64,000 bases of DNA, taken from NCBI RefSeq assembly GCF_963921235.1, contig NC_086108.1:21266001-21330000 (forward strand), written 5' to 3'. Source of the DNA: Mobula hypostoma. Taxonomy: Eukaryota. The notes under the pieces were generated by a model. That model was given only the letters and a program-made list of their open reading frames with translations. It was not told the DNA's origin and did not search any database. Positions within the stretch are counted from its first letter, which is position 1. The number at the start of each line of letters is the position of its first letter. A program made the position numbers and the translations under genes. Of the stretch, positions 1,602 to 61,873 are shown one piece after another.

Positions 1602-2190
1602 AAGCAACATACACAAAATGCTGGAGGAGCTCAGCAGGTCAGGTAGCATCTATGGAAGAGAATAAACAGTTGACGTTTTGGGCCGAGTGTTCTTCAAGAT
1701 TGAGAAGGAAGAGGAAAGAAGCCAGAGTGATAAGATTGCCGGGGGGGGGGGTGGTTGTGGGAGGATAGCTGAAAGACAATAGGTGAAGCCAGGTAGGTGG
1801 GAAAGGTCAAGGGTTGGAGAAGAAGGAATCTAATAGGAGACGAGAATGGACCATAGGAGAAAGGAAAGGAGACCCAGAAGGAAATGATAGACAGTTGAGA
1901 AGAGGTAAAAGGTCAGAGTGAGAATAGAGGCAGAGGGGAGGGGAGGGAAATTTAATGCTGATTCCCATTCCTGTTCCACAATGAGGCCACCCTCAGGTTG
2001 GAGGAACGCCACCTTCTATTCCACCTGGGTAGCCTCTAACCTGATGGCATGAACATCGACTTCTCCATCCAGTAAAAAAAACCCTCCCCTTCCCCTCTTC
2101 CTCTATTCCCCATTCTGGCCTCTCACCTCTTCTCACCTCCCACCGGTGCCCCTCCTCCTCCCTTTTCTCCTATGGTCCACTCTCCTCTCT
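1602..2190. mobile_element. Penelope-like element remnant in inverted configuration (- arm then + arm)
   Basis: The - arm starts with the family terminus (acacaaaatgctggagga.ctcagcaggtcagg) and is purine-rich. The + arm has the post-GIY-YIG motif (gaggccaccctcaggttggaggaac...cctgatggcatgaacatcgac) and a pyrimidine-rich tail. Confidence 0.75.
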
Positions 2191-3237
2191 TATCCACTAT
2201 GGCAGAGCAGTTCATAATCATACCTAAGGGCATTTTTAGATGGAATATCCATGAGGATAGAGTGCGCAATTTCAGACTTGACCCTATGAATATCATGGTT
2301 TCAGAGGAAACATGATTAGTAAAACCTTCGTAAATAAGAACCAGTACTTTTCAGACCAGTACAGTTGTATAAGAGTGTGGCACTATTGCTGGCATATTGA
2401 GTGAGTTTTACACTGAAGTGAAAGCAGTGCTAGGTAAAATAAAGTCCTGCTGTAAAGTCAGCAGTTTAATCATTTGCCAGATGGACGGACACCCAGAATT
2501 ATGTATAAAATTGCTATTGTCCAATCTTCCATTGAACAGTGTTATTGCTGGAGATGTGAGAAGGAATTCCTAGATTGATCTATAAAATCAAGCTGAGTAA
2601 CTGGAGACAGCTATGGCTTTCCATACTTGTTGCCCAAGTTAACAATTACTCCAGTAGAAAGGATGGGGGGTTTTCTGTCTAATAGGTGATTAATCATAAA
2701 TAGACATTTTGACTTAAGAGATAGTTTTAGGGCAGGATTTACACTGCTGATATGTTTAGAAAAGCACAATGTGACTTACTTATTTTGAAGAGCATTGCAA
2801 ACTTTTGTATGTAGACTTGCACCAGGATTTAGTTTGTGCTAATTCATGTTTCCAGAAAGTAACACTGGAGAATCTTAAAAGGCCTCAGGCTCTGAGAATT
2901 CTTACTAGAGATCTGTTTTTCACCCTTACTGACTCAAGTGTTTAAGAACAACCTGGTGGGAAATGTCAATAACTGGAACAAGTTTCATTTCCAATAGTGA
3001 TGTTACCACTTAATTACCTTTGAACTGAAGCTAACTATAGCCAGTAAAATATCCACTGCTGCAATCATCTTTATTCTGGAAATAATGTAAAAATAAACAA
3101 GGTTTTATTGGATACTGAGTTTCATTTAAAAACAGGAAGTATACAGCAAGAGGTTAACATAAGTAAGGTATTAAAGATTTAGGTTACAGATGGGGCCTTT
3201 CAGCAGAATTTAACTCACTGTTTCTTACTCTGAACAG

Positions 3238-4671
3238 AAGCCAGCTCTGCCAGTGGCGAGGATGGAACTCTCCTCTTTTTGGATGATCAGCCTATTAAAC
3301 AGATGGATCCTGTAGTTAATGCTTCTCAGGCACCATTTCCTGCCCTGACAACCATCACTTCAGAGACAGCAACAAAATCCAGTGATCAGCTGAATATCAC
3401 AGATGAGACGAAGGCTTTGACTGGTGTTAGTCCAGTACTTGTCATAGGTTCAACAATTCCCAGTATGACGGTCACGTCCAGTGGTACCAATATAACTAAC
3501 TTTACTGTGATCACTCCAGAACAGCATCTTGCTCAGGCCAGCCAAACCGATGCCTCAGAGTCTGCCACAGCTATCAACACCACTGCTTCTATCCCACCTC
3601 CTACCCACACTCTCTCCACAGTAAACACAACTTTTACCACAGTCCCAATTCCCCCTCCTGCGACGACTCATGCAACTGACATCACATCCCCACGAATTTC
3701 TGCTTCCCTTCCACCATCCAAAGTTGCTCTCACATCCCCTGCAGTCACCACCACAACAATTCCTAACGGCGAAGTTCCCATCATCATCCCCAATGACATT
3801 GCAGCAACTGTTTCAAATATCCCACCCCACTTGGACACAACTGCTGCCCCACCCACCACAGCCCACATAACTAATACCAAACACCTGCCCACAACTAGGT
3901 TGAGCACTGCGGTCCCCACAACTACTGGAACAGCAGCAGCAACCACTGAGCTTCCCACCACAACAAGCACTGCAGCCACCACCATGATCACTGTAGCCAC
4001 TGCCTCACCCACCACCATGACCACTGTAACCACTGCTGCACCCACCACTGTAACCACTGCCTCACCCACCATTATGACCACTGTAACCACTGCCTCACCC
4101 ACCACTGTAACCACTGCTGCACCCACCACTGTAACCACTGCCTCACCCACCACTGTAACCACTGCTGCACCCACCACTGTAACCACTGCCTCACCCACCA
4201 CTGTAACCACTGCCTCACCCACCATTATGACAAGTGTACCCATTACAACACACAATACAACCACAATGCCAACCATCAGGAGGATGACACCTCCCACAGC
4301 CGCCACTTCTGCAACCACCAAACCCAGCACAACACTCACCACAATGACTATCACCACCACAACAGCTGCCCCCACCACAACTATACCAACCACAGTACCA
4401 ACCACCACATCTGCTACAACCACAGCACCTACTGTCACCAACATCACCACAGTGCCCACAACACCCACTATTACCACACCAACCACCACCACACCCACCA
4501 TCACCTCAACCATGGCAGGCACCGTCACCACCCCCAAGCAAAGAACTAAAACCCGTTCTCCACATGCCAGGACAACCTTACTTCCTCCCGCTGCCAGACG
4601 GAAATTCCACATGGAGGGCACACGGAGACAACGTGTAAGCTACAATTGGAATGATGGTTACCGAAGTTTTG
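3238..4671 (+). CDS. OLFML2B: OLFML2B internal coding exon: Thr/Pro-rich mucin-like linker
   Basis: Acceptor tttcttactctgaacag|AAG at 3237/3238 and donor TTTTG|gtacgt at 4671/4672. The 1434-nt phase-1/phase-1 exon is open throughout. SGEDGTLLFLDDQ resembles the start of the equivalent vertebrate OLFML2B exon. It joins in frame to the next exon (FG|ECKE). Confidence 0.85.
3987..4229 (+). repeat. Coding minisatellite, 24-nt unit encoding TTVTTA(A/S)P, with occasional 9-nt TIM/TTM spacers
   Basis: Eight ACCACTGTAACCACTGC(TG/CT)CACCC units plus one variant, read directly. Confidence 0.95.
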
Positions 4672-4879
4672 GTACGTGAGATCCCATCAAAACAGAACTT
4701 GCTTTTTATAATTGCAGAATATATTGATAAATTGTGCTGAGTTTATTCCATTTATTGGGAAAGGTTATAATTTGATAACTGCATGCTTTGAATTCGCTTG
4801 TGGTTTATAATCACACTTTGATAAGCTTCCACACAAATAGGTGGTAAACAGGTAGGTTGGAGCACCTGAAATGCTAGAC

Positions 4880-10810: not shown

Positions 10811-11708
10811 CCAATCACAAACAAGAAAAAATCTTCAGATGCTGGAAATCCAAGCAACACATACAAAATGCTGGAGGAACTCAGCAGGCCGGGCAACATC
10901 CAGGAAAAGAGTACAACCGATGTTTCAGGCCAGAACCCTTCAGCAGGACTGGAGAAAAATGCTGAGGAGTAGATTTAAAAGGTGGGGGGAGGGGAGAGAG
11001 AAACTGGAGGGGAAAGGATGAAGTAAAGAGCTGGGAAGTTGATTGGTGAAAGAGATACAGGGCTGGAGAGGGGGAGAGTGTGATAGCAGAGGATAGAAGG
11101 CCATGGAAGAAAGAAAAGGGGGTAGGAGCATCAGAAGGAGGTGATGGGCGGGCAAGGAGATAAGGTGAGAAAGGGAAAAGGGGGTGGGAAATGGTGAAGG
11201 AGGGGAAATGGGGGGTGGCGTGACATATCCATTCCGATATGTCCACCCATGGCCTCCTCCATTATTGTGATAAGGCCACACTTAGGTTGGAGGAACAACA
11301 TCTTATACTCCATTTGGGTAGCCTCCAACCGGATGGCATGAATATCAATTTCTCAATCTTTTAGTAATCCCGTCCGCGCCCCCCTCACCATTTCTCATCC
11401 CCTTTTTCCTCTCTCACCTTATCTCCTTGCCCACCCATCACCTCCCTCTAGTGCTCCTCCCCCTTTTCCTTTCTTCCATGGCCTGCTGTCTCTTTCACCA
11501 ATCAACTTCCCAGCTCTTTACTTCATCCTTCCTTCTCCAGGTTTCACCCATCACCTTGTGATTCCCTCTCCCCTCCCCCCACATTTTAAATGTACTCCTC
11601 AACTTTTTTTCTCTAGTCCTGCCAAAGGGTTTCGGTCTGAAACATCAACTGTACTCTTTTCCTAGATGCTGCCTGGCCTGCTGAGTTCCTCCAGAAATTT
11701 GTGTGTGT
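10811..11708. mobile_element. Penelope-like element, fold-back (- arm about 10817-11220, + arm about 11226-11708)
   Basis: The two arms are reverse complements carrying the family terminus. TSD TGGTAGATTTATCTT (10796-10810) / TGGTAAATTTATCTT (11709-11723). Confidence 0.85.
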
Positions 11709-11754
11709 TGGTAAATTTATCTTATTGCTTTCAGAGGTGAGGATTTTCTGCAAC

Positions 11755-12321: not shown

Positions 12322-12749
12322 TTATTTATATAATTGACTTCTCAAACTTTCGCTAATGCTCCACCTCCCCCTCACACCCCATCCGTTATTTATTTATATA
12401 CACACATTCTTTTTCTCTCTCTCCTTTTTCTCCCTGTCCCTCTAACTATACCAGTTGCCCATCCTCTGGGTTTTCCCCCCCTCCCCCTTTTCTTTCTCCC
12501 TAGGCCTCCTGTCCCATGATCCTCTCATATCCCTTTTGCCAATCAACTGTCCAGCTCTTGGCTCCATCCCTCCCCCTCCTGTCTTCTCCTGTCATTTTGG
12601 ATCTCCCCCTCCCCCTCCCACTTTCAAATCTCTTACTAGCTCTTCTTTCAGTTAGTCCTGACAAAGGGTCTCCGCCCGAAACGTCGACTGTACCTCTTCC
12701 TAGAGATGCTGCCTGGCCTGCTGGGTTCACCAGCGTCTTTGATGTGTGT
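12322..12749 (+). mobile_element. Penelope-like 3' fragment with hammerhead-type motif
   Basis: Pyrimidine-rich tail, then agtc-ctgacaa-agggtctccgccc-gaaac-gtc-gact (12654-12689). TSD TGCTTCTTTTCT at 12310-12321 and 12750-12761. Confidence 0.85.
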
Positions 12750-12898
12750 TGCTTCTTTTCTGTGTTCTTGTCTTGCTGAAGTTCTCAACTTAGCAGGGCA
12801 GTATGAGCATTGGTTCTTTGGGTGATCTGCAATACCTACATAATGATTGCGTGTCTGACTGTGGGCTTTTTGATCATTATGCCTGCAAGAATATTTGA

Positions 12899-13150
<252 letters not shown>

Positions 13151-20155: not shown

Positions 20156-20351
20156 AAGGATGATTAGTCACCTTTTGCTGCTTAAAAGCAACGGCGAGGA
20201 ATGGCAACACAAATTGTGTCCTAGAGTGGAGCCAGCAGTAACTTCAAACAATCATGATGTCTTCCCTCAGGAAAAGAAACTGGATTCTAGGAAAATACTG
20301 ATAGACACAAAATGCTGGAGGAACTCAGCATCTATGGAAAAAAGGGAAGAG

Positions 20352-21019
20352 AAGATGGTGGCGCGACGCAGCTTGCAGCGGCCACTCCAGTGGTGATGTC
20401 TGTTATTTGTCAAGTAGGGTGCTGTGCACAATCCTGATTTGATGGAGACAGACGTGAGAGCACAGAGGAACATCTGGTGACACTTCTGAAATGCCTGCTT
20501 CGCTGCTGCTGCTACTGTGTGGTCCAGAATCTCCGGAGGAGAAGGTCCCGAGTCCCTGGCTTTGCTTGTTGCTCGGCGGCCGGGGTGGGGTCGAAGCGCT
20601 TGGCAGAGGATGGTGCTCGGAGAGGCTGTATCAGAGGGGCTGGTCAGAGGCTCGAAGTTTTTGGACAGACTCAGAGTCGGCTGTGGTCGGGTGCTTCCAA
20701 TGCATCAGCAAGTTGTCAGTGCTTGGAGGTTCATGGCAGGGAGAGTTTCTCCCTTCTGCCACCTGCATTAGATGATGAGTCAGTCGGGACTTTGAGACTT
20801 TTTTTTTACCATGCCCATGGTCTACTCTTTATCAAATTATGGTATTGCTTTGCGTTGTTGTAACTATATGTTATAATTATGTGGTTTTGTCAGTTTTAGT
20901 CTTGGTTTGTCCTTTTGTTTTGTGATATCATTCTGGAGGAACATTGTATCATTTTTTAATGCATGCATTTCTAAATGATAAACGAGGACTGAGTGTCCTC
21001 ATAATCTAATCTAATCTAA
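20352..21019 (+). mobile_element. GC-rich SINE-like element of about 670 bp with (TAATC)n tail, copy 1
   Basis: Starts AAGATGGTGGCG and ends GAGGACtgagtGTCCTC-ATAATCTAATCTAATCTAA. Close reverse-complement copy at 27389-28061. Confidence 0.85.
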
Positions 21020-21758
21020 AAAGTACAGTTGATGTTTTGGGCCAAGTCCTTCAGCAGGTCTGGAGATAAAAATATAGGGCATTTTGTGTGTGTTGCTTGG
21101 ATTTCCTGTATCTGCAGATTTTCTCTTGTTTCTTCAAAGAAAGGGGCTTCTCTTCCTCCACCATTAACACTGCCCTCAACTACATCTCTTCCATTTCACA
21201 CAAGTCTGCTATTACCTCATCCTCCATCATCCCACCAGCCTCTACGTCCAGTACATAATTCTTCGGAACTTCCGCTATCTCCTATGGGACACCACCACCA
21301 AGCACATTTTTACTCCTCCCCTCACTTTCTGTTTTCTTCAGGGATCGCTCCCTATACAACTCCCTTGTCTAATTGTCCCTCCCCACTGATCTCCCTCCTG
21401 GCACTTACTCTTGCATGCAGAATAAGTGCTACACCTGCCCCTACACCTCCTCCCTCACTACCATTCAGGGCCCCAAACAGTTCTTCCAGGTGAGGTGACA
21501 CTTCACCTGTGAGTCTGATTGGGTGATATACTGTATCTGGTGCTCCCGGTGTGGCCTCCTGTACATCGGTGAGACCTGACATAGATTGGGAGACTGATTC
21601 ACTGAGTACCTATGCTTCGTCTACCAGAAGAAGCTGGATCTCCCAGTGGCTTTTCATTTTAATTCCACTTCCCTTTCCCATTCTGATATGTCAATCCATG
21701 ACCTTCTCTACTGTTGTGATGAGGCCACACTCAGGTTAGAGGATCAACACCTAACCTT

Positions 21759-22221
21759 TTGGATCGGGACTACAGAGCATCGTGGGAGCTGAATTCTGAA
21801 GGAAGGCAGTTTTTTTAAAAGCTTCTTCGAGTGCAAGAAGGATGAGACTGCGCAGGCATGTGACGTAACAGGACAGCACAGAGAGTTTAAAAAGGGAGGT
21901 TGCTACCAACAGCTGTCTCTTGGATCGGGACTACAGAGCATCGTGGGAGCTGAATTCTGAAGGAAGGCAGTTTTTTTAAAAGCTTCTTCGAGTGCAAGAA
22001 GGATGAGACTGCGCAGGCGCATGACGTAACAGGACAGCACGGAGAGTTTAAAAAGGGAGGTTGCTACCAACGGCTGTCTCTTGGATCGGGACTATAGAGC
22101 GTCGTGGGAGCTGAATTCTGAAGTAAGGCAGTTTTTTAAAAAAACTTCTTTGAGTGCATGAAGGGTGAGACTGCGCAGGTGCGTGACGTCAACAGGACAG
22201 CGCGGAGAGTTTAAAAAGGAG
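21759..22221 (+). promoter_or_regulatory. Three tandem 161-bp monomers at the CR1 5' end carrying NRF1-, CRE- and TATA-like motifs
   Basis: Units start at 21759, 21920 and 22081. TGCGCAGGCGCA at 22010-22021, TGACGTCA at 22184-22191, and TTTAAAA in each unit. Promoter function is inferred. Confidence 0.7.
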
Positions 22222-22502
22222 ACCACCCTCTACAGTGGGCAGCTGTCGGAGCAGGCAGTGGAGTGAGCGGTAACAGAGTGTAGGGCTTTGGCATCAACGG
22301 GCTTCGGCGGTAAACGGGGAGAGGTGAGAGCGAAGCACCAACTCTTCTCCCCCCCCTTCACGAATCGGCCCGGACAGACAGGAACCGCAGGGCTCTCACA
22401 GCTAACGGTACGAGCTAACGGTTTAAAAAGTTCATCTGTTTGGCGAGGTAAGTGGGTGAGTAGACTTATTTCTCCTGTTTCATTCCTGTAGAATTAGATA
22501 GC

Positions 22503-23438
22503 ATGCCTGCAGGGTTAGTGCTTTGTTCAGGGTGACAGATGTGGGAGTCCGGGGAGACCTCCGGCCTCCTTGATGGCCACATCTGCGCCAGGTGCACCGA
22601 GATGCAGCTCCTCAGAGACCATGTTAGGGATCTGGAGCTGCAGCTCAATGACCTACTGCTTATCAGGGAAAGTGAAGAGGTGATAGACAGGAGCTACAGG
22701 GAGGTAGTCATCTCTAGGCTACAGGGGTCAGAAAACTGGGTCACTATCAAGACAGGGAAGGGAAATGCCCGGATAGTGGAGAGCATACCTGTGGCTGTCC
22801 CCTTCAGCAACAGATATCTTGTTCTGGATGCTGTTGAGGGGGATGACCTGACAGGGGACGCCCACGGTGACCGGGTCTCTGGCACTGAGCCTGGTGCTGT
22901 TGTGCAGGAGAGAAGGAGGGAGAAGAGGAATGTGGTAGTCATAGGGGATTCCATAGTCAGGGGAACGGACAGGAGATTCTGTGAGCCTGATAGAGATACT
23001 CGCATGGTGTGTTGCCTCCCAGGTGCCAGGGTACGGGATATCTCGGATCGGGTCCTGAATATTCTGAAGGGGGAGGGTGAGCAGCCAGTTGTCTTGGTAC
23101 ATGTTGGTACCAATGACATAGATAGGACAAAGGAGGAAGTCCTGAAGAGAGATTTCTGGGAGTTAGGAAGGAAGCTGAGAAGCAGGACCTCCAGGGTAGT
23201 AATCTCGGGATTGGTACCTGTGCCACGTGCTAGCGAGGGCAAGAGTAGTAGGATCAGGCAGATGAATGCGTGGCTGAGAGACTGGTGCAGGGGGCAGGGC
23301 TTCAGATTCTTGGATAATTGGGATCTCTTCTGGGGGAAGTATGACCTGTTCAAAAAGGACAGGTTACACCTGAACCCGAAGGGGACCAATATCCTGGCGG
23401 GAAGGTTTAATAGAGCTGTTAGGGAGGGTTTAAACTAA
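22503..23438 (+). pseudogene. CR1 ORF1 (N-terminal CxxC...CxxC finger, coiled coil, SGNH/GDSL esterase) with a premature TGA at codon 11
   Basis: ATG at 22503 gives MPAGLVLCSG*QMWE, in frame with the 299-aa ORF 22539-23438. Confidence 0.85.
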
Positions 23439-26400
23439 TTTGGCAGGGGGATAGGAACCGGAATGACAGAGCAAAGGGAGGGGAAAACAGAAATAAATCT
23501 AAGATAGTGAGCAGTAAAGATGTCAGGAAAGACAGGCAGGTGATGGGGCAAATTTGTAGCCATTGGGATGAGCTGCAGTGCGATAAAGTTGCAGTGAAAT
23601 CAAAGTAAAAAGTACCAAATACTGGTCTTAAGGTGTTATACTTAAATGCACGCAGCATAAGGAATAAGGTGGATGATCTTGTCGAGCAGCTACAGATTGG
23701 CAGGTATGATATTGTGGCCATCTCTGAGATGCGGCTAAAGGATGCATGTCTCTGGGAGCTGAATGTCCAAGGATACACGGTGTATTGGAAGGATAGGAAG
23801 GTAGGCAGAGGGGGAGGCGAGGCTTTATTGGTAAGAAATGATATTAAATCATTAGAAAGAGGTGATATAGGATCGGAAGGTGCAGAATCTTTATGGGTTG
23901 AGCAAAGAAATCGCAGGGGTAAAGGGACCCTGATGGCAGTTATTTATAGGCCTCCAAACAGCTGCAGTGATGTGGACTACAAATTACAACAGGAAATAGA
24001 AAAGGCTTGTCAGAAGGGCAGTGTTATGATAACCATGGGGGATTTTAACATGCGAGTGGATTGGGAAAATCAGGTCGGCACTGGATCTCAAGAGAGAGAA
24101 TTTGTAGAATGTCTGCGAGATGGCTTTTTAGAACAGCTTGTTGTTGAGCCCACTAGGGGATCGGCTGTACTGGATTGAGTATTGTGTAATGAACTGGAGG
24201 TGATTAGAGAGATTGAGGTGAAGGAACCCTTAGGAGGCAGTGATCATAACATGATTGAGCTCACTGTGAAATTTGAAAAAGAGAAGCCGAAATCTGATGT
24301 GTCGGTATTTCAGTGGAGTAAAGGAAATTACAGTGGCATGATAGAGGAACTGGCCAAAGTTGACTGGAAAGGGGCACTGGCGGGAAAGACGGCAGAGCAG
24401 TAGTGGCTGGAGTTTATGCAAGAAGTGAGGAAGGTGCAAGACAGGTATATTCCAAAAAAGAAAAAAATTTCGAATGGAAAAAGGATGCAACATTGTTGAC
24501 AAGAGAAGTCAAAGTTAAAGCAAAGGAGAGGGCATACAAGGAAGCAAAAATTAGTGGGAAGACAGAGGATTGGGAAGTTTTTAAAACCTTACAAAAGGAA
24601 ACTAAGAGGGAAAAGATTAACTATGAAGTGAAACTAGCAAATAATATCAAAGAGGATACTAAAAGCTTTTTCAAGTATATAAAGAGTAAAAGACAGGTGA
24701 GAGTAGATATAGGACCGATAGAAAATGATGCTGGAGAAATTGTAATGGGGGATAAGGAGATGGCAGAGGAACTGAACGAGTATTTTGCATCAGTCTTCAC
24801 TGAGGAAGACATCAGCAATATACCGAACACACAAGGGTGGCAGGGAAGAGAAGTGTGCGTAGTCACAATTACGACAGAGAAAGTACTCAGGAAGCTGAAT
24901 AGTCTAAAGGTAGAGAAATCTCCTGGACCAGATGGAATGCACCCGCATGTTCTGAAGGAAGTAGCTGTGGAGATTGTGGAGGCATTAGCGATGATCTTTC
25001 AAAAGTCGATAGATTCTGGCATGGTTCCGGAGGACTGGAAGATTGCAAATGTCACTCCACTATTTAAGAAGGGGGCAAGGAAGCAAAAAGGAAATTATAG
25101 ACCTGTTAGCTTGACATCGGTGGTTGGGAAGTTGTTGGAGTTGATTGTCAAGGATAAGATTACAGAGTACCTGGAGGCATATGACAAGATAGGCAGAACT
25201 CAGCATGGATTCCTTAAAGGAAAATCCTGCCTGACAAACCTATTACAATTTTTTGAGGAAATTACCAGTAGGCTAGACAAGGGAGATGCAGTGGATGTTG
25301 TATATTTGGATTTTTAGAAGGCCTTTGACAAGGTGCCACACATGAGGCTACTTACTTAAGAGCCCATGGAATTACGGGGAAGTTACATATGTGGATAGAG
25401 CGTTGGCTGATTGGCAGGAAACAGAGAGTGGGAATAAAGGGATCCTATTCTGGTTGGCTGCCAGTTACCAGTGGTGTTCCACAGGGGTCTGTGTTGGGGC
25501 TGCTTCTTTTCACATTGTACATCAACGATTTGGATTATGAAATAGATGACTTTGTGGCTAAGTTTGCTGACGATACGAAGATAGGTGGAGGGGCCGGTAG
25601 TGCTGAGGAAATGGAGAGTCTGCAGAGAGACTTGAATAGATTGGAAGGATGGGCAAAGAAGTGGCAAATGAAATACAATGTTGGAAAGTGTATGGTTATG
25701 CACTTTGGCAGAAGAAATAAACGGGCAGACTATTATTTAAATGGGGAAAGAATTCAAAGTTCTGAGATGCAACGGGACTTGGGAGTCCTCGTACAGGATA
25801 CCCTTAAGGTTAACCTCCAGGTTGAGTCGGTAGTGAAGAAGGCGAATGAAATGTTGGCATTCATTTCTGGAGGAATAGAGTATAGGAGCAGGGATGTGAC
25901 GTTGAGGCTCTATAAGGCGCTGGTGAGACCTCACTTGGAGTACTGTGGGCAGTTTTGGTCACCTTATTTAAGAAAGGATGTGCTGACGTTGGAGAGGGTA
26001 CAGAGAAGATTCAATAGAATGATTCTGGGAATGAGAGGGTTAACATATGAGGAACGTTTGTCTGCTCTTGGACTGTATTCCTTGGAGTTTAGAAGAATGA
26101 GGGGAGACCTCATAGAAACATTTTGAATGTTGAAAGGCATGGATAGAGTGAGTGTGTCAAAGTTGTTTCCCATGATGGGGGGAGTCTAGTACGAGAGGGC
26201 ATATCTTAAGGATTGAAGGGCGCCCATTCAGAACAGAAATGCAAAGAAATTTTTTTAGTCAGAGGGTGGTGAATCTATGGAATTTGTTGCCATGGGCAGC
26301 GGTGGAGGCCAAGTCACTGGATGTATTTAAGGCAGAGGTTGATAGGTATCTGAGTAGCCAGGGCATCAAAGGTTATGGTGAAAAGGCGGGGGAGTGGGAC

Positions 26401-27388
26401 TAAATGGGAGAATGGATCAGCTCATGATAAAATGACGGAGCAGACTCGGTGGGCCGAATGGCTGACTTCTGCTCCTTTGTCTTATGGTCTATTCCATCTG
26501 GTATCCTCCAACCTGATGACATGAACATATATTTCTCAAATTTCCAGTAATGCCTCTCCCCACCTTCAACATTCCCCATCCTCTTTTCCTTCTCTCACCT
26601 TATCTCCTTGTCTGCCCACCGCCTCCCTCTAGTGCTCTTCCCTGATTTTCTTTCTATCCTGTCCTATCAGACTCTCCCTTTTTCAGCCCTGTATCTCTCA
26701 ACCAATCAACTGCACAGCTCTTTATTTCAACCACCCCCCCTCCAGGTTTCACCCATCACCTTGTGTTTTTCTCTCTCCTCTCCCCCACCTTTTAAATCTA
26801 CTACTCAGCTTTTTTCCAAAGTCCAGCCTGAAACGTCAGCTGTACTCTTCCTGTCTGTCCTGCTGAGTTCCTCCAGCATTTTATGTGTGTTGCTCTGGAT
26901 TTCCAGCATCTGCAGATTTTCTCTTGTTTGAAAATACTGATACATCTGTTTTTGATGGATTTCTAAAGTGTGCCTGCACTAAATCTTCTGTAATGTATAA
27001 TCGAAACCTACAGTAATTTTCTGCCACCTCAAAAACGTAATCCACTAAAGAGGTCTAGGAGCATAGTGTGCCATTTACTGAATTTTATGCCCACAATTGC
27101 TTTCCTGGAAATGGTGAGCTGGAAGGAAGAGAATCAAGTATGCAGAAAGTGAACCACTTCCTGGAGATTGCTTTCATTTTTTGAAGAGAGTCACTGGGAG
27201 TGGATGGTAACCTGTGGATTGGTGGGAATTCGGTGAAGAAGGTTAAGAAGAGTTTCAAAGAAAAACTAAACACCCTGAGAAACTAGTAGTCATTTTATTT
27301 ATTTCTATTTTACTCATGTTAAAAGTTGTTTATTGATTACAGCTCTGCCTTCAATACTATAATTCCAAGCAAGATCATTATCAGACTC

Positions 27389-28061
27389 TTAGATTAGATT
27401 AGATTATGAGGACACTCAGTCCTCGTTGTCATTTAGAAATGCATGCATTAAAAAATGATACAGTGTTCCTCCAGAGTGATATCACGAGAAAACACAGGAC
27501 AAACCCAGACTAAACTGCCAAAACCACATAATTATAACATATAGTTACAACAGTGCAAAGCAATGCCATAATTTGATAAAGAGCAGACCATGGGCATGGT
27601 AAAAAAAAGTCTCAAAGTCCTGATAGGCTCATCATCTCACGCAGGCAGCAGAAGGGAGGAACTCTCCCCGCCATGAACCTCCAAGCGCCGCCAACTTGAC
27701 GATGCAGCACCATTGGAAGCACCCGGCCGTAGCGGACTCCGAGTCCGTCCGAAAACTTCGAGCCTCCGATCAGCCCCTCTGACACAGCCTCTCCGAGCAC
27801 CATCCTCTGCCGAGGGCTTTGATCCCACCCCGGCCGCCGAGCAACAAGCAAAGCTGAGGACTCGGGGCCTTCTCCTCCGGAGATTCCGGACCACACAGTA
27901 GCAGCAGCAGTGAAGCAGGCATTTCAGAAGTTTCACCAGATGTTCCTCTGTGCTCTCACGTCCGTCTCCATCAAATCAGGATTGTGCACGGCACCCTACT
28001 TGACAAATAACAGACATCACCACCGGAGTGACTGCTGCGAGCTGCGTCGTGCCGCCATCTT
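27389..28061 (-). mobile_element. SINE-like element copy 2, inserted in a Rex1 fragment
   Basis: Reverse complement of 20352-21019. Its 5' end is AAGATGGCGGC (28051-28061). Rex1 RT sequence lies on both sides. Confidence 0.85.
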
Positions 28062-31944: not shown

Positions 31945-32058
31945 TAAATAACCAAAAAAATTATACTTGTTCATTTATTTTTTGAGAAAAATGATAAAAG
32001 GTAGTGTAGATTTTAGACCTTGCAAAATCTGATTAGACTAAACTATTATTTGTTTTGA

Positions 32059-33832
32059 GCAACACACATAAAAGTTGCTGGTGAACGCAGCAGGCCAGGC
32101 AGCATCTCTAGGAAGAGGTACAGTCGATGTTTCAGGCCGAGACCCTTCGTCAGGACTAACTGAAAGAAGAACTAGTAAGAGATTTGAAAGTGGGAGGGGG
32201 AAGGAGAGATCCAAAATGATAGGAGAAGACAGGAGGGGGAGGGAGGGAGCCAAGAGCTGGACAGTTGATTGGCAAAAGGGATATGAGAGGATCATGGGAC
32301 AGGAGGCCTAGGGAGAAAGAACAGAGGGAGGGGGGAAGCCCAGAGGATGGGCAAGGGGTATAGTGAGAGGGACAGAGGGAGAAAAGAGAGAGAGAGAAGA
32401 AGAATGTGTGTATATAAATAAATAAATAACGGATGGGGTACGAGGGGGAGGTGGGGCATTAGCAGAAGTTAGAGAAGTCAATGTTCATGCCATCAGGTTG
32501 GAGGCTACCCGGATGGAATATAAGGTGTTGTTCCTCCAACCTGAGTGTGGCTTCATCTTTACAGTAGAGAAGGCCGTGTATAGACATATCAGAATGGGAA
32601 TGGGATGTGGAATTAAAATGTGTGGCCACTGGGAGATCCTGCTTTCTCTGGCGGACAGAGCGTAGGTGTTCAGCGAAATGATCTCCCAGTCTGCGTCAGG
32701 TCTCGCCAATATATAGAAGGCCGCATCGGGAGCACCGGATGCAGTATATCACCCCAGCCGACTCACTGGTGAAGTGTCACCTCACCTGGAAGGATTGTCT
32801 GGGGCCCTGAATGGTAGTGAGGGAGGAAGTGTAAGGGCATGTGTAGCACTTGTTCCGCTTACAAGGATAAATGCCGGGAGGGAGATCGGTGGGGAGGGAT
32901 GGCGGGGGACAAATGGGCAAGGGAGTTGCGTAGGGAGCGATCCCTGCGGAAAACGGGGGGGAGGGTGCGGAAGGGAAAGATGTGCTTAGTGGTGGGATCC
33001 CGTTGGAGGTGGCGGAAGTTATGGAGAATTATATGTTGGACCTGGAGGCTGGTGGGGTGGTAGGTGAGGACAAGGGGAACCCTATTCCTAGTGGGGTGGC
33101 GGGAGGATGCAGTGAGAGCAAAATATATATGCCCCACCCCCCCTACCCCATCCGTTATTTATTTTTTTATAACTCCCTTGTCCATTCGTCCCCCCCCATC
33201 TCTCCCCACCAATCTCCCTCCTCGCACTTATCCTTGTAAGCGGAACAAGTGCTACACATGCCCTTACACTTTCTCCCTCACTATCATTCAGGGCCCCACT
33301 CAGTCCTTCCAGGTGAGGTGACACTTCACCGGTGAGTCGGCTGGGGTGAAATACTGCATCCGGTGCTCCCAATGCGGCCTTCTATATATTGGCGAGACCC
33401 GACACAGACTGGGAGATCGTTTCGCTGAACTCCTACGCTCTGTCCGCCAGAGAAAGCGGGATCTCCCAGTGGCCACACATTTTAATTCCACGTCCCATTC
33501 CCATTCTGTCTATCCACGGCCCCTCCCCCTTTTCCTTCCCCCTGGGCCTCCTGTCCCATGATCCTCTCATATCCCTTTTGCCAATCAACCGTCCAACTCT
33601 TGGCTCCATCCCTCCCCCTCCTGTCTTCTCCTAACATTTTGGACCTCCCTCTCCCCCTCCCACTTTCAAATCTCTTACTAGCTCTTCTTTCAGTTTGCCC
33701 TGACGAAGGGTCTCGGCCTGAAATGTCGCCTGTACCTCTTCCTAGAGATGCTGCCTGGCCTGCTGCGTTCACCAGCAACTTTTATGTGTGTTGCTTGAAA
33801 TTCCAGCATCTGCAGATTTCCTCGTGTTTGCG
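32059..33832. mobile_element. Penelope-like element, large fold-back (- arm 32059 to about 33120, + arm about 33130-33832)
   Basis: GIY-YIG motif YCIRCSQCGLLYIGETRHRLGDRFAE in the + arm and its near-equivalent in the - arm. Perfect TSD TTATTTGTTTTGA at 32046-32058 and 33833-33845. Confidence 0.92.
32122..32157 (-). ncRNA. Minimal (PLE-type) hammerhead ribozyme motif with intact core
   Basis: The - strand reads AGUC-CUGACGA-agggucucggccu-GAAAC-AUC-GACU: CUGANGA/GAAA core, NUH triplet and helix I AGUC/GACU. Activity is not demonstrated. Confidence 0.7.
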
Positions 33833-34257
33833 TTATTTGTTTTGATAAGTTTCTTTTGCCAGATACATTGCTTGGTGTAGAATTCATCTGTCCAAGTTGG
33901 GATCTAGCCCAAATGGGTCTAATAGATTTAAGATGGGAGTGCTATGATTAATTTCAAAATTGGGAGATGGTATTTCCATTGTTCTGTGGTTTACACTGCT
34001 CCCACATCAAACAAAGGAACCAGGCTGTGTTGCTACAGAACCAAGGTGGGAAGATGGAGCTAAACTTCAAATCAGCCATGATAAGTTTGAAAGGCTGAAT
34101 AAAAGGCTTACCATCCTTCCAATTCAGCTCCCGCCCCACCTTCTGACAGCCATCGGTATTTTCTGCTACCCAGCCATATGAAAATACTAACTGTTGCCTG
34201 GATAAAGCTAGTTGGACAGATGCTGGTTAACAGGTGGTGCTGATGGAAGCTGAATAG

Positions 34258-34920
<663 letters not shown>

Positions 34921-40712: not shown

Positions 40713-41599
40713 TTTTTACACTGTTATTTGTAATTATTTAATATTTTTTAATGTCCTGAAAAAAAGGTTTTATTGCCTGTTTCAAGAAATGAGAACTGAA
40801 ATCTCAGTTATGTTCCTGCATCCAATTAATTCTTCCTTCAACTCTAGCCTTTTACCCATCTGCCATTTTTGCCTTCAAACTGGTTAACAATCCTTCCCTG
40901 TGTTTTTTTAAGTCCTTTTATTAAAAGTAGGCTATTAAACTTGAAGGTAGCGGTATTGTCTCTTCAAATTTAGCCAGGATGATATGGCTACATTTATATT
41001 GATGTAAACAACAATATTGAAGACAATGAAGATGAGGCAGGATACTACAGTGCAAAAGCTGAGGTAATAGATAAATATAATATTGATTTTTTAAAACTGT
41101 TACACTTTATCTGAGCAGTTTACTGTTGTAGTAACCATTTGAAGGCATCAAATTACTGGGAAAAAATTCCTGGTACAATAAATCAAGTCACAATCACGAG
41201 AAAATCTGCAGATGCCGGAAATCCAAAGCAACACACACAAAATGTTGGAGGTCAGGCGGCATCAATATTTTGTGCATGTTGCAATAAATGATATGCTTTC
41301 TTATCTAGGTCCCTAGTTATACTGAATTTTCATAAGCTGGGAATGGTTAAAATAGTTTAGTTAAAAGACAAGCTCTAATCTTAAACACCAGCTGAATCCC
41401 AATAACTGAATACGGCGGGCAAAATTCCTTCTTAAAATTCAGTATCAGTTAAGAGAAAAGGTGGTGAGAATCATTTTTAAAATGTTTGTTTTTATAGAAA
41501 TTTAAAATACATACTGTTTTTCAAAATTTTGTTGTTTACATTTCTGGTAAATTTCAATTAGTTTGGATGACAGTTTTAATGATTTCCTCAATGCAATTT

Positions 41600-43644: not shown

Positions 43645-44095
43645 TACAACGCACAAAGTTCCAGAGGAATTCAGGTCTGGCAGCATCGATGAGGGAAATA
43701 ATTAGTCAATGTTTTGGGCTGAGACCCTTCATCAGGACTGGGGAGGAAACCAAAATATGAACAGGGGAGGAGAAGGAGTACAAGCTTGAAGGTGATAGGT
43801 AAAACCAGGTGATGGGGTTGAAGTGAGAATGATGATGATGAGAATGGACGATGATAGTTAGAACATGTAAAGGACTCTGAAAGGGAGGACAGTGGACCAT
43901 GGGAGAAAGGGGAGGAGGATACCAAAGGGAGGTGATGCGTGGATAAGAAGAGAAGTGCTAAGAGGAGAGCCAAAATTAGGAATGGAAAAAGAAAGAAGGG
44001 GAGAGAAATTAGAAGTTAGAGAAATAGATACTCATACCATCAGATTGGAGGCTACCCAGATAGAAAATGAGGCCTTACTCCTCCAATCTGAGAGT
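43645..44095 (-). mobile_element. Penelope-like 3' fragment
   Basis: The - strand reads cagtc-ctgatga-agggtctcagccc-aaaac-att-gact, with a purine-rich arm on +. Confidence 0.75.
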
Positions 44096-44799
44096 GCCCA
44101 AGCCATTAGAAAAGCTTGGGGAGGCTGGGGTAGAAAGGGAAGGAACTCCTCCTAACTTCATGCATGATTTTGATGAGACCTCAATCGCAGTAGTGTGTAC
44201 AGTTTTGTTCTCCAATACAAATGAACTACTTGCTAGAAGTTTGCACATTGAAACTTCACCAAAATGATTTCAAGATGAGGGAGTTGTCCAATGAGATGTT
44301 TGATCTTCACCCACTGGAGTTTTGAAAATGAGAGGTGACACTACATGGGACTATTTAGATAATCAGAATTGTTTCATCCAACCAGACAATCCAGCACTTT
44401 TACTTCTACTTTATACTTTATTGTCACCAAACAACTGATACTAGAGCGTACAATCATCATAGCGATACTTGATTCTGCGCTTCCCGCTCCCTGGATTACA
44501 AATCAATAGTAACAGCGTGCGGTGTAAAGTTTTGTGGTTAGGGCAAGGTTTCAGGAAAAGTCAGTAGACATTTAGGACTGAGATAAGGAGAAATATCCCT
44601 ATGCAGAGGGTATTATGTATATTTTAAATGGAGATTTACAGAATTTGGTTTCCCTGAGTCCACACTGGGCTCAGTAATCTAATCAGGGCCAATAATTACC
44701 TAACATATTTACAGTTCTTCATTTATGGAGTCTTGGCCATCCCATATTTTAATTATTGCATTCCTCTTTCCAGGCTCAGGGGTTAAATCTTTCTTCCAT

Positions 44800-48381: not shown

Positions 48382-48387
48382 TTTATT
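48382..48387 (-). terminator. Candidate ATF6 polyadenylation signal
   Basis: AATAAA on the - strand followed by U/GU-rich sequence (ttgttatttatcttctc...tgtcttgctgttc). It ends an apparently TE-free stretch of about 1.7 kb after the ATF6 stop. Confidence 0.55.
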
Positions 48388-51032: not shown

Positions 51033-53491
51033 TGATTAAATTCTTGTTTTTCTTACTTTTCCACAGTATTATTAAGGAGCTCTCTTATATTTTATAAGTT
51101 TATAGTTCTGATGAAGGGCTTCCACCTGAAACATAAGCATCTTAAACCTTGACAAGGCTTGATGCGTATTTACAGAATATTCTGTGTTTGTTTAGGCATT
51201 TAAACTTAATGTCAGAGCCATCACGGAAAAAATAATCAATATATATTATTGATGCAAGCTGTTGCTGTGACTTGGTCCACTTTAAAATGTGTTCTTGGAA
51301 TACAGGGAATATCTTTAATCACCATTCTTACCTTCCATAATAAAGTGTTCTGAGCCCTCTCCCTTTGTGGGGATTGATTTTACAGCTGAGCAGCTTGTGA
51401 GGCTGTTCCGACTCAAACATTTATTTGGGATTAGTTTTATACCCACCAGATGATTAGAAAGGCAGGTTCTGTTCCCTAGAGTTTGTGAGTGAATCAGTTG
51501 AATTATTTGGCAAATGAGTCATTTTCACAGTTATTTCTTGAATGACAGCCCATTAATTATGAAGTGTTGTAAGGCGTTAAAATGTGCCAGAAGGGCCGAT
51601 AAATAACTCACTCTTAGAGCTAAATGATTTGTTTCAGTGATGTTGGTTGACCATTGCACACAGTTCATTGCTCTTACATTGTGAATGCCTAACTTCATCT
51701 CAGATTCCTTCAGTTATTTGGTTTGGCTACTGATGAAAAGGATAATCTATTACCCAGACACGTCATGTTCATTTTTTTTTTGCCTCCCACTGAAGGGAAA
51801 TAAAATACCTGCTGCTTAGCTCAGAGAACAAAAAAGCAGTGAAGTGAAGGGACTGACGATATCAGCTTACAGCACAGAAACACTCTCTCCTGCCCTCCAT
51901 CTCTATGCCAACCTTTCTGCCCATCAACACTACTCCCATTTACCTGCATCATGCCTGCATCCTTTAATGCCTTGACTATTTAAGTGTTTATCTAAATCAC
52001 AGAAATAATTTCTGATTCCAGCACCTACTCTGGCAATACATCCCATCAATGTGTGGCACTGATTCAGTACCAGCACTGACACCCATCTGTTCATTCTGAT
52101 GCACTTCCTGCCTTGTGGGTGATTTAATTTGCAGCTCACGATAAACTGAGAAGTGAAATCTCAGAATTGTGCACCAACTGGACCTGTATGAGATCATCAA
52201 ATTTTGCAGCTGAAAAAAGCTATGATTTTTATTTAAAAAAACATCTTTTCTGCCAAAGTGAGTAATTAATTTGGACTGTACGCTCCAATGACAGAAGTAG
52301 AAACCAATGAACATATGAAGGCAGTGAATAAACAACAAATTTCAACTTATATTCTTCCCGTCTGCCATCTGATTTTTAAATGGACATTGAACCCATGAAC
52401 ACCACCTCACTACCTTTTAAAATTTCTGTTTTTGCACTACTTATTTAACATAACTATTTAATATACATATATATAAAATTACCATATTTCAGGTTTGTTT
52501 CTATATTTATCATGTATTGCATTGCAAAGTTAACAAGTTTCATGACATATACTGGCGATACTAAACTTGATTCTGATTAAGGAAACCATATCTGACATTT
52601 TCACTTTTTTCAGATTTAAGCCACAAAATGCCTAATCTTCCAAAATAAATATATGATACAATCTAGCCACTTATCCTTGTCAGTAAGCAGTGTGATCTTC
52701 TCAACTATCAACATCCTAGGGGCCGTCACTGACAGAAATTCAATTGGACCTACTATATACATATAGTGGCTGTTCAGAGTACACTGCAGGGGGATACTCA
52801 CCTCCTGTCACCATAAAGCCTTTCCACTGATTACGAGCAGAATTAAATACACCTTACTTGCCTAGACGAGTGCAGTTGCAACCCCATCCAACAATCTCAA
52901 ACCAGTTCAATTGATTGGTCTCTATTACACACAGTGACTTGTCCAGACAATGTCTGTGGTGGTAATCTTTTACCACCAAAAAGGCATAGAGAAGCACCAT
53001 TACCTGAAAGTTTCACATGAAATTAAACATCACCTGAATTGAAATACATTGCTATTCTTTCACCATCTCTGGTCTAAATCCTGGAGCTCCCAGCTCAACA
53101 GCATTATGGGAGCTCCTTCGCCACAGCAGCCCCAGAGGTTGTCTCACTACAGCCTTGGCAAAGACAATAAATGAAGCAATAAATGCAATCTGAAAAACGA
53201 ATAAATGAAAATAACAATGCTTCAATAGCCATTGAGATGAGATGGGAAAACAGATGGTGCTGATGTGGTACTCAGAAGGTAGCAGATAAAGGACAGATTG
53301 AGAGGAAACTGAAAGACGGTTGGAGAAGAAGAGAGCAAAAATATTAATATAAAGCACAGAACAGTTCAGCAGAGAAAAAGGCCCTTTGGTCCACAATGTT
53401 ATGCCAAACTAATTAAATTAGTAAACATTCTGAAATAATCTCTTCTGCCTACACACTGTCTATGTTTTTCTATTTCCTGTGCATTCTTGTT

Positions 53492-58000: not shown

Positions 58001-59035
58001 GCAACCCTTTGGGGGGTTTTCCAAACAGAATGATTGTGGTGATTGAAGAAGGTACCTCATAGCAGCCGTGAAAGATGAGCAATAAATGCTGGCAGTGGCA
58101 GCACAAACGTTATTAATGAATAAAAAGGCTAATAATTTTGAGAAATACAGTATCAGGTTTATTATCACTGATATGAAATTTTATGTGTTGTGGCAGCAGT
58201 ACAGGGCAAAGGTATAAAATTACTCTCAGTTCCAAAATAAATAAATAGTGCAGAAAGAGAAATAATGAAGTAGAGGTCATGGTCCATTCAGAAACCTGAT
58301 GGCAGAGGAAAAGAAACTGTTCCTGAATCATTGTGTGGATCTGCAGCCTCCTGTCCCACCTCCCTGATGGTAAAGGAGAGTACATGACCTCAGTGATGAA
58401 GGATGCATACTCCCTCGAGCTTTTCTGCAAATTATTTTAGATGTTTCTTCTAGTTACTGATCTTTTATCAAAATCCGTAACAATTTTGAACACCTCTCTT
58501 AAATCCCCTCATACTTATTCACTAATGAGACAACCCCAGCTTTTCAAGTTTCTGCAGTACTTACTAAAAAACTGGAACTCCCACAGTTCCCATGAAGCAA
58601 TTTACATTGGAGCAACCCTTCACTGAAAATCCATGTGTGACAGAGTAAACGCGTTCCTCACACACTGCCTTCTCGTCCTGCTTTTGTTGCACTGTGTATG
58701 CTCTTCATTGTCTTCCTTGGTATATTCTCATACTGGGTCCTAAATCAAACTGATGTACTTTATGGTGCCTTCCCCACCACACACAGCAGAATATTCTATT
58801 TCTTTAGTAATGGGGATGTTTATCTGCTGCATATATACTATATTTAAGGTAGATCAGAACTAGAATCTGAATCAGGTTTAATACCACTGGCATATGTGGT
58901 GAAATTCATTAGCTTTGCAGCAACAGCACAGTGCAATACATGATAAACATAGAAAAAAAAAGTGAATTATTACATAAGGTCTAACATGGGTAAAATTATC
59001 CTTAAATTGTTGCAGGTAAGTTATTAAACAGAGGA

Positions 59036-59188
59036 CACGAGGAATTCTGCAGATGCTGGAAATTCAAGCAACACACATCAAAGTTGCTGGTGAACGCAGC
59101 AGGCCAGGCAGCATCTCTAGGAAGAGGTACCTCTTCCTAGAGATGCTGCCTGGCCTGCTGCGTTCACCAGCAACTTTGATGTGTGTTG
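59036..59188. mobile_element. Penelope-terminus-derived mini element containing a perfect 120-bp palindrome
   Basis: 59069-59188 is self-complementary about GGT|ACC (59128/59129). TSD ATTAAAC(A/G)GAGGA at 59023-59035 and 59189-59201. Confidence 0.92.
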
Positions 59189-60410
59189 ATTAAACGGAGG
59201 AGCTGGAATATGAAAGACTGACATCTTTTTGAGATCTGGATGACTACATAATTAATTGAAATACATGTGGTTAATTTTCAATCAATGCCCGAGTGTTTGG
59301 GAAATATTAACCATCAGGATTATTTTCTGACTTGTTTGCAAAATGAGAATAATAAAAGATAACTTTCAATGAATAAGGGGTCTGAATATAAACTGAGTTG
59401 TTAACTGTGAAGGTTAACTGTTAAATTTGAGACCAGCTACATGGAAGACCATCATGAGAACAAAGGCAACTCCAACTGAAGCTAGAGGCACAATCAGATG
59501 GCATGTCAACTGTCCTGGCATTATTTCATACAAGGCAAAACCTAACAGTATAAATGGTTGTAATGCTTCTCTCCCCAATAAACTCAGCGCCTTTTATGCA
59601 CACTTTGAAAAGGAGAAGAACACTACACCTGTGTAAATCCCTACAGCACATGGCTATCCTGTGATCTCTGTCTCAGGGGCCAATGTCTGGATATCCTTCA
59701 AATTACAACAGGAGCTAGAAAAGGCATGTAAAAAGGGGAACAGCCATAGGGGATTTCAATATGCAGGTATATTGAGAAAATCAGGTTGGTGCTGGATCCC
59801 AAAAGAGGGAATTTGTGGAATGCATACAAGATAGTTTTTTAGAGCAGCTTGTGGTTCAGCCCACTAATGGAAAGGCAATTCTGAATTTGATGTTGTGTAA
59901 ATTAATCAGATTTGATTAGGGAACTTATGGTAAAGGAACCTTTTGGAGACAGTGATTATAACATGATAGAATTCACCTTGGAGTTTGAGAAGGAGAAGAT
60001 AAAGTCAGATGTAACAGTATTACAGTGGAGCAAAGGGAATTACAGGGGCATGACAGAGGAGCTGGCCAAAGTTGATTGGAAGGGGACACTAGCAGGAATG
60101 ATGGTAGATCAGCAATGGCTAAGACGCAGGATAGACACACCACAAAGGTGAAGAAATATTATAAAGGGAGAATGAGGCAACTGTGGCTGGCAAGGAAAAT
60201 CAAAGGCAGCATGAAGACAAAAGAGAGGGCATATAATATAGTCAAATTAGTGGGAACTTAGAGGATTGGGAAGCTTTTAAAAACCAACAGAAGGCAATTA
60301 AAAAGCCATAAGGAGTGAAAACATGAAATGTGAATGAAAGCTAACCAAAAAATTAATACCAAAAGAATTTTCAGATTCAGATATAAAGTGTAAAAGAAAA
60401 GTGAGAGTAG

Positions 60411-61873
60411 GGCCCCAGCTATGCCTGCCTCTTCGTTGGTTACGTGGAACAGTCTGCGCTCCAAACCTATTCTGGTCCCCAACTTTTCCTTCACTACATT
60501 GACGACTACATTGGTGCTGCTTCCTGCACCCATGCTGAGCTCGTCAATTTCATCGACTCTACTTCAACCTTCTACCCAGCCCTCAAATTCACTTGGTCTA
60601 TCTCGGACACTTCTCTCCCCTTTCTCGATCTCTCGGTCTCCATCTCTGGAGACAGACTGTCCACTGACATCTTCTACAAGCCCACTGGCTCTCATAACTA
60701 CCTCGACTATACATCTTCCCACCCTGCCACATGTAAAAATGCCATTCCCTATTCCCAGTTCCTCCGTCTCCACCGCATCTGCTCCCAGGATGAGGCTTTC
60801 CGTTCCAGGACATCTCAAATGCCCTCTTTCTTTACGGATCGTGGTTTCCCTTCTGCTATCATCAACGATGCCCTCACCCGCATCTCCTCCATTTCCCGCA
60901 CTTTGGCCCTCACCCCATCCTCCCGCTACCATAACAGGGATAGAGTTCCCCTTGTCCTCACCTACCACCCCACCAGCCTCCGGATCCAGCACATTATCCT
61001 CCGCAACTTCTGCCACCCTCAACAGGACCCCACCACTAAACACATCTTTCCCTCTCCACCCCTCTCCACTTTCCGCAGGGATCGGTCCCTCCGCACTCCC
61101 TGATCCACACGTCCCTCCCCATGGATCTCCCACCCGGCACTTATCCCTGTAAGCGTAAGTGCTACACCTGTCCCTAAACCTCCTCTCTTGCCACCATTCA
61201 GGGCCCGAAACAGTCCTTCCAGGTGAGGCAACACTTCATTTGTGAGTCTGTTGGGGTTATCTATTGCATCCGGTGCTCCAGGTGCGGCCTCCTCTACATT
61301 GGTAAAACCCGACGCAGACTGGGGGACCGCTTCGTCGAGCACCTCTGCTCCATCCGCCACAACAGACAGGATCTCCCGGTTGCCACCCACTTCAACTCTG
61401 CTTCACATTCCCATGGCCTCCTCTACTGCCATGATGAGGCTAAACTCAGGTTGGAGGAGCAACACCTCATATACCGTCTAGGTAGTCTCCAGCCCCTTGG
61501 TATGAACATAGAGTTCTCCAGCTTCTGGTAATTCCCTCCCCTTATCCCTATTTCACTTTGCCCCCTCCCCCAGCTGCCCATCACCTCGCTCATGGTTCCG
61601 CCTCCTTCTACTACCCATTGTATTTTCCCCTATTCCTTCTTCACCTTTCCTGCCTATCACCTCCCTGCTTCCACTCCCCCACCCCTTTATCTTTCCCCTT
61701 AATGTTTTTTCACCTGAAACCTACCAGCCTTCTCCTTCCCATCCTCTCCCCACCTTCTTTATAGGGCCTCTGCCCCTTCCCTCTTCAGTCCGGACGAAGG
61801 GTTCCGGCCTGAAACGTTGACTGTTCTTTTCCACGGATGCTGCCTGACCTGCTGAGTCCCTCCAGTGTGTTGT
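60411..61873 (+). mobile_element. Penelope-like element, 5'-truncated (RT C-terminal half, GIY-YIG endonuclease, terminus)
   Basis: GPSYACLFVG, FLHYIDD, LPFLDL, DIFYKPT and VIYCIRCSRCGLLYIGKT. TSD AAGTGA(G/A)AGTAG at 60399-60410 and 61874-61885. Confidence 0.92.

Follow-up and report, generated by a model that had tools for sequence, protein, structure and literature searches.

Minimal hammerhead ribozymes in the pseudo-long terminal repeat (pLTR) of Penelope-like retrotransposons were already described in 2014 (Cervera and De la Pena, PMC4209133). Metazoan examples include the Xena, Poseidon and Neptune elements of fishes, and such motifs show weak activity as dimers and none as monomers (PMC4209133; PMC6765202). 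Here we examine hammerhead motifs carried by a Penelope-like element in a 64,000-nucleotide stretch of the genome of the ray Mobula hypostoma (RefSeq assembly GCF_963921235.1, contig NC_086108.1, positions 21,266,001 to 21,330,000, forward strand), termed the window, which holds the last three coding exons of the gene OLFML2B. Coordinates are counted from its first nucleotide; samples are small, and all copy counts are for this 64-kb window. The motif is very probably a minimal type I hammerhead in the 3′ pLTR of a high-copy ray Penelope-like element, selected in the source elements and decaying without visible constraint as a passenger after insertion.

The ray motif agrees with the metazoan Penelope hammerheads of PMC4209133 in being of type I without a loop 3, with palindromic 15.2–16.2, an additional nucleotide separating position 9 from 10.1 and a G10.1–C11.1 pair. 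It also shares a helix I of 4–5 bp, a prevalence of lone, scattered motifs left by truncated elements, some close pairs on opposite strands, and high variability. The Schistosoma families of that paper differ, with a helix II of 7–8 bp as against 4 bp with a 4-nt loop in the ray. For the variability, PMC4209133 floats RNA-to-RNA replication, whereas in the ray motif it is largely CpG decay; such decay offers a simple account both of the ‘extreme variability’ of vertebrate motifs and of how genomes tolerate many of them. Chondrichthyan terms are absent from the part of that paper's supplement text covered here, outside which its file 1 lies.

The Poseidon element of Anolis carolinensis (PAc; Frangieh et al. 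2024, PMC11167929) resembles the ray element in its hammerhead upstream of two reverse-transcription start sites, its ends with and without a 30–40 bp tail and its AT-rich targets. It belongs to the Penelope/Poseidon clade, which is without the linker zinc finger, while the ray element has the linker. The PAc open reading frame (ORF) starts inside the hammerhead; the window holds no 5′ end of the ray element. The non-LTR retrozymes of a 2026 preprint that included one chondrichthyan genome (bioRxiv 10.64898/2026.07.22.740005) are likewise short, Penelope-derived and equipped with type I hammerheads; they are recognised by tandem repeats holding two or more complete hammerheads, of which the window has none. 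In a limited literature search, Penelope hammerheads of sharks or rays, their CpG decay and a Penelope subfamily with C at position 6 (C6) were not the subject of any paper found. The main value of the present analysis is one of annotation: a very abundant ray Penelope family has ends that carry a textbook minimal hammerhead.

Hammerhead motifs in the window

In the motif, helix I (AGUC/GACU) is joined by CUGAYGA and a single additional A to helix II, which has 4 bp and a loop of 4 nt; GAAA leads on to helix III (ACGU), and cleavage is predicted after GUC. By sequence it is a minimal type I hammerhead of Penelope-like elements, as a preliminary description of this DNA had proposed; the core, the bulge, G10.1–C11.1 and the palindromic 15.2–16.2 all support this class. 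G5, A9, A13, A14, A15.1 and U16.1 are unchanged in all copies that retain them, and the extra nucleotide between 9 and 10.1 is A in 10/10 copies having the position. Position 11.1 is C in 4/12 copies and U, forming a wobble with G10.1, in 8/12. Helix pairs are retained in 89% of cells, against 14–50% in slid controls. Family contigs from 4 of 23 listed sequencing runs (22,860, 4,272, 2,153 and 3,910 contigs) were aligned to 33480–33900; in the majority sequence of these runs helix I is restored in 94–100% of depth, and C15.2 is found in 51–96%; RNA runs are absent from the 23 listed. Invariant core positions are absent from the 40 rows listed of this comparison, which has 52 more rows, and core variation in the family is not bounded by it.

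All eight copies named in the preliminary description have the positions, strands and defects given there, and its three decayed copies were located at 11615–11650 (+), 21027–21061 (−) and ∼1668–1701 (−). Profile searches added a twelfth, overlooked before, a remnant at 26819–26841 (+) from which the 5′ strand of helix I and CUGANGA have been deleted, about half of the motif. The same searches found motif-less termini at 21078–21131, 41191–41266 and 59035–59191, and weak older remnants near 6170 and 13280. Most copies were rightly called defective: the core is intact in 3/12 and the palindrome in 5/12, but both in 0/12. The palindromic ACGU attributed to helix III survives in those five, the other 7/12 differing from it by CpG transitions.

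Copies 32122–32157 (−) and 51104–51139 (+), earlier listed as intact in the core, are so, but their helix III is ACAU instead of the palindrome. The first, antisense to OLFML2B, has helices I and II intact and owes its ACAU to CpG decay; the third intact core, at 33696–33731 (+), stands beside a broken helix I (2/4 pairs) and an AUGU helix III. The copy at 12654–12689 (+) has a single lesion, the CpG transition G8>A, with every helix intact, and that at 61787–61822 (+) has U4>G and C17>U with the palindrome intact. A6>C is combined with ACAU at 10915–10950 (−), with G8>A and ACAU at 11615–11650, and with G12>A and ACAU at 21027–21061. The subfamily D copy at ∼1668–1701 has C3>U and G12>A, and the subfamily E copy at 43704–43739 (−) has G12>A and ACAU. 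The 51104 motif, with three helix I pairs, had been placed on a Penelope terminus, yet no Penelope flank is detectable there; this orphan may derive from an older or different Penelope family.

The family pattern with at most 3 mismatches matches nine times in the window, against a mean of 0.01 in 100 shuffles, and a chance origin of the motif was rejected on this count. The generic pattern CUGANGA..GAAA..UH gives three exact matches against 0.32 in shuffles, none of the 100 shuffles reaching three. No hammerhead was among the 11 matches of an Rfam scan of the window up to E=5, and a descriptor scan for complete motifs returned 0 in the window. Folded as a single strand, 32120–32159 forms the helix I and II shape with unremarkable stability (z=0.31); for 51102–51141 this shape was not obtained.

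The Penelope-like carrier and its insertions

The carrier is a Penelope-like element, as the preliminary description had held: a GIY-YIG ORF ends 255 nt 5′ of the hammerhead at 61787–61822, on the same strand. This 5′-truncated, frameshifted ORF (60411–61531, +) encodes the end of the reverse transcriptase (RT), a CX2-3CxxC linker and a GIY-YIG endonuclease (EN) with a CCHH signature. GIY-YIG at 61178–61528 passes the Pfam cutoff (E=2e-5); the 230 aa upstream, which have no Pfam match of their own, are 49% identical to residues 548–778 of the relative P0053, whose RVT_1 and GIY-YIG domains span 414–603 and 839–919. The eight best matches of the ORF are shark and ray proteins at 65–81% identity, followed by mostly unnamed proteins at ∼50%, the named ones being from marine invertebrates. 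CCHH, a CxxC ahead of the YIG half-site with two downstream histidines, is present in the 32-kb and 61-kb translations, and a CX2-5CxxC linker between RT and EN in those of the 32-, 33- and 61-kb copies; at 21 kb the linker is degenerate. Such a zinc-finger linker marks Neptune and is common to Nematis (PMC8557442), and the translated sequence would accordingly place this element of a ray in one of these two clades. The subfamily C 3′ pLTR that follows (61532–61876, +) is inserted in a CR1 fragment with a 12-bp duplication containing one mismatch.

Five distant Penelope-type loci were found on metagenome contigs at 24–32% protein identity. In each of the three that continue beyond the ORF stop, a single complete minimal hammerhead follows the stop by 66–220 nt (shuffle means 0–0.005); its helices pair but are unrelated in sequence, and its palindrome is ACGU or ACCGGU. 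Of the other two, the contig ends too early or has no hammerhead. Metagenome contigs gave 0 matches to an exact pattern of the motif's downstream block, and 12 candidate stretches on viral contigs yielded 0 confirmed. Searching with spurious protein translations of the terminus returned one protein from 8000 candidates, and no terminus peptides occur among 240 proteins. On contig L005 (1–4289), bacterial-looking flagellar export genes directly precede a Penelope-type RT/GIY-YIG ORF and its downstream hammerhead; a FliJ-like match opens the same frame as the ORF, and the contig is possibly chimeric. Two ray gene models, P0001 and P0002, named as isoforms of DIPK1C and of a chitinase-domain protein, include long stretches of Penelope RT/EN sequence, probably as mis-annotated or exonised element fragments.

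Insertion ends were placed by eye on alignments. The 11 sites of the preliminary description represent nine insertions, since 10915 and 11615, and likewise 32122 and 33696, are the two arms of one inverted insertion. Complete head-to-head inverted pairs number four (10815–11712, 20302–26927, 32059–33830 and the motif-less 59035–59191), and in 4/4 the tail is on one arm only. Endonuclease-bearing Penelope-like elements are known for 5′-truncated copies, an inverted adjacent copy and a 30–40 bp tail at one end (PMC8557442). Target duplications of 12–15 bp with at most one mismatch flank 7/10 insertions examined, the maximum among 90 mismatched flank pairs being 10; the values at 41.2, 1.6 and 43.6 kb were 10, 6 and 6. 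The 3′ ends fall into two groups ∼35 nt apart, in agreement with the pair of sites at which the Anolis element starts reverse transcription (PMC11167929). The motif probably rides as a passenger on 5′-truncated retrotransposon ends and is not a ribozyme family spreading independently.

Subfamily A includes two of the insertions. The inverted one (32059–33830) has a minus arm at 32059–33123, a plus arm with tail at 33171–33830 and an exact 13-bp duplication; the other (12333–12752, +) is single, 5′-truncated and tailless, with a 14-bp duplication containing one mismatch. In subfamily B, the inverted insertion 10815–11712 has its tail on the minus arm only, and 20302–26927 was later split by two elements; each has a 15-bp duplication with one mismatch. 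The split insertion resumes in register, positions equivalent to 61467 and 61470 mapping to 21752 and 26490. Its splitters are a repeat (∼20352–21017) with a (TCTAA)n end and a second, 90% copy at 27389–28061, and a near full-length CR1-type LINE (∼21755–26489) whose ORF1 encodes an esterase and whose 5′ end holds a 161-bp tandem duplication (21756–22077), making a three-layer nesting. Two old pieces are without a detected target duplication, an inverted subfamily D remnant (1602–2193) and a subfamily E 3′ end (43645–44113, −).

The smallest insertions are relevant to an alternative in which the short units would be a non-autonomous retrozyme or SINE family spreading as ribozyme-processed RNA circles. 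A 130-bp insertion (30320–30449, +; 13-bp duplication, one mismatch) starts at U4 of the hammerhead, stops where the tail ends and so spans core to tail; in one run, a single contig leaps from the tail back to the core, over 131 nt; and both arms of the 157-bp fold-back at 59035–59191 (tail on one arm; 13-bp duplication, one mismatch) start 4 nt 3′ of the predicted cut site. The fold-back is a single case and starts at a self-complementary GTAC, so that microhomology is the simpler explanation. Moreover, the unit does not occur as a tandem array among the repeats listed in the window, the positions of 5′ ends vary from within the ORF to within the motif, and no pile-up at the cut site is seen among the 24 of 848 loose ends listed, which are those of contigs and would not show RNA ends. 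We consider spread as circles hardly credible, and a retrozyme array was rejected for want of a tandem unit among the repeats listed and of any complete motif. The fold-back also yields spurious mir-2 and mir-194 Rfam matches and, if transcribed, is predicted to form a near-perfect hairpin.

The sequence 3′ of the motif offers two further observations. In subfamilies A and B the downstream block and tail (33728–33833, +; 30347–30452, +; 10815–10918, −) are predicted to fold as one long stem-loop whose inner hairpin has the first 3′ terminus at its base; the signal is weak (z −0.7 to −1.7), and the stem-loop is a candidate structure for protein binding or initiation. Two copies of subfamily A (33486–33845, +; 32041–32307, −) have one reading frame without stops from the pLTR end through hammerhead and tail; this could be an ORF start as in the Anolis element, or chance.

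Conservation, decay and predicted cleavage of the motif

Between five subfamilies (A–E), assigned by hand from pairwise identity, the 11 invariant core positions are 82.5% identical, helices 73.6%, the downstream block 70.9%, loop II/N7/position 17 55.2%, upstream sequence 54.1% and the spacer 50.2%, in a comparison that leaves out the 51.1-kb motif and the motif-less termini. The core is thus conserved above its flanks, as anticipated, clearly so against the upstream sequence and narrowly against the downstream block. Once inserted, copies seem to lose this protection: private changes in the youngest subfamily (core 1/43, helices 6/60, flanks 20/906) indicate no protection of the motif.

Much of the decay is at CpG. 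Relative to the majority motif, CpG positions are G8, G12, 15.2, 16.2, 17 and 1.1; they are changed in 20/71 cells, against 22/247 elsewhere (p=9e-5), a count that excludes N7 and 11.1 because they may be fixed in source elements (33/94 with them). Every copy with G8>A (two) or G12>A (three) retains the preceding C. In the hammerhead, G8 and G12 serve as catalytic acid and base. The CpG bias is plain, and methylation is its presumed driver; cartilaginous fish transposons are hypermethylated (PMC5437953).

Host selection could instead have removed or disabled sense-strand intronic copies, since intact ones would cut pre-mRNA as trans-dimers. No sense intronic copy has an intact enzyme strand, the best-preserved copy (32122) is antisense, and tandem retrozymes are reported to be under-represented in Xenopus introns (bioRxiv 10.64898/2026.07.22.740005), but the core is intact in 1/5 sense and 1/4 antisense intronic copies, with no visible difference between strands. 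The lesions are moreover the expected CpG transitions, and 2/5 sense copies (11615 and 33696) lie near an inverted arm that would bury them in double-stranded RNA. We therefore judge such selection very unlikely as an explanation of the defects.

Among nine modelled copies, 0/9 form a complete homodimer, and a partial heterodimer is formed in 10/81 ordered pairings; in 0/16 pairings among the four sense intronic copies is one formed, and in 0/16 is an intact core combined with more than two helix I pairs. The copy at 32122–32157, previously put forward for cleavage assays, is a poor choice: its homodimer would have just 2/4 helix III pairs, so a negative result with it would be uninformative for the family.

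Under the preferred reading, of a hammerhead selected in source elements and carried as a passenger, the source-element motif would be under selection and, judging from published relatives, would most likely need to pair with a second molecule through the ACGU palindrome in order to cleave after GUC; cleavage would be slow and might depend on the element's protein. Reverse transcription would begin ∼65–70 or ∼100 nt downstream of the cut site, at the two termini seen here, and would usually abort early, so that most insertions long enough to pass the motif would carry it as a passenger. Inserted copies would be under no visible constraint, and methylation-driven transitions would disable them quickly, CpG dinucleotides being present at the cut site and in the helix III palindrome as well as at G8 and G12. 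It is likely that no copy in the window cuts OLFML2B pre-mRNA.

Several points weigh against this reading. Compensatory change in helices I and II is seen in 0/8 pairs among window copies, and no full-length ORF between two direct pLTRs exists in the window. At −14.7 kcal/mol, the predicted active dimer falls short in stability of both two monomers (−11.9 each) and the best co-fold (−32.1), and cleavage by the family is itself a prediction from published relatives and sequence. The downstream block is nearly as conserved as the motif, and part of the conservation may thus reflect a protein-binding or coding role. Lastly, A6>C is shared by three subfamily B arms, so not every source element had a canonical core.

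Some of these points would also suit a motif that is no working ribozyme even in its sources, kept as an RNA structure or sequence bound by protein for the start of reverse transcription, or as coding sequence at the ORF start. The downstream block, almost as conserved as the helices, is predicted to fold with the tail into the long stem-loop, the frame is open across motif and tail in subfamily A, and A6>C is common to two independent insertions. In vitro, insertion by the Anolis element is unaffected by ribozyme mutants and no reads end at the cut site, yet the same element cleaves with its protein, and C3 and G8 mutants abolish cleavage (PMC11167929). Core, bulge and palindrome also recur with unrelated helix sequences in relatives of 24–30% protein identity. 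On balance we regard a motif without ribozyme function as improbable.

Position 6 is C in all three subfamily B arms that retain it (regions of 10946, 11619 and 21061). These arms belong to two insertions with separate target duplications. As both arms of one insertion carry A6>C, the change was already in the template, and its presence in a second, independent insertion points to a source lineage; this suggests transposition of a source element whose core was weakened. Among natural hammerheads the A6C core is a known variant, with low activity in Mg (PMC3088659, PMC7151607) and next to none at low Mg. The phage Bcep176 variant described there has the same CUGCUGA core as subfamily B, but is a bacteriophage ribozyme assayed in vitro, slow with Mg and active with Mn, whereas the ray variant is known as sequence from a vertebrate retrotransposon. 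Counting against a C6 source lineage, no A>C change except at 33588 reached 4% in three of four runs; divergent contigs were clipped near 33699, so C6 copies may escape this comparison, and the C6 evidence is from two insertions. Tentatively, and with somewhat more doubt than confidence, we raise the possibility that subfamily B amplified from sources with a CUGCYGA core, a Penelope lineage transposing without a working hammerhead or with a metal-shifted one. If confirmed, such a C6 subfamily would bear on the necessity of the ribozyme for Penelope elements; combined with the CpG sites at G8 and G12 and in the palindrome, it would amount to a natural experiment on ribozyme need and on methylation disarming dispersed ribozymes.

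The host gene OLFML2B

OLFML2B (gene span in the window 3237–34920, +) is represented by its last three coding exons, at 3237–4673, ∼12970–13147 and ∼34310–34920, assigned from a Pfam OLF match and an exon map. The last shares 99% identity with the OLFML2B sequences of Mobula hypostoma and Hypanus sabinus, and the first, a Thr-rich mucin-like exon, is 99.8% identical to Mobula hypostoma OLFML2B. Residues 1–316 are outside the window, and window positions 1–3236 would therefore be intron. Dense scattering of ribozyme motifs through host introns, as the preliminary description put it, is correct in that 8/11 of its sites are intronic, but all eight are in this one gene; the remaining three (43704, 51105 and 61786) lie 9–27 kb beyond the OLFML2B stop codon. 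A host-exapted ribozyme family was considered and rejected.

The mucin-like exon is itself much expanded in rays and sharks, most matching proteins having ∼910–1090 aa as against ∼750 in mammals, and within it lies a 24/15/9-bp tandem array at 3930–4254.

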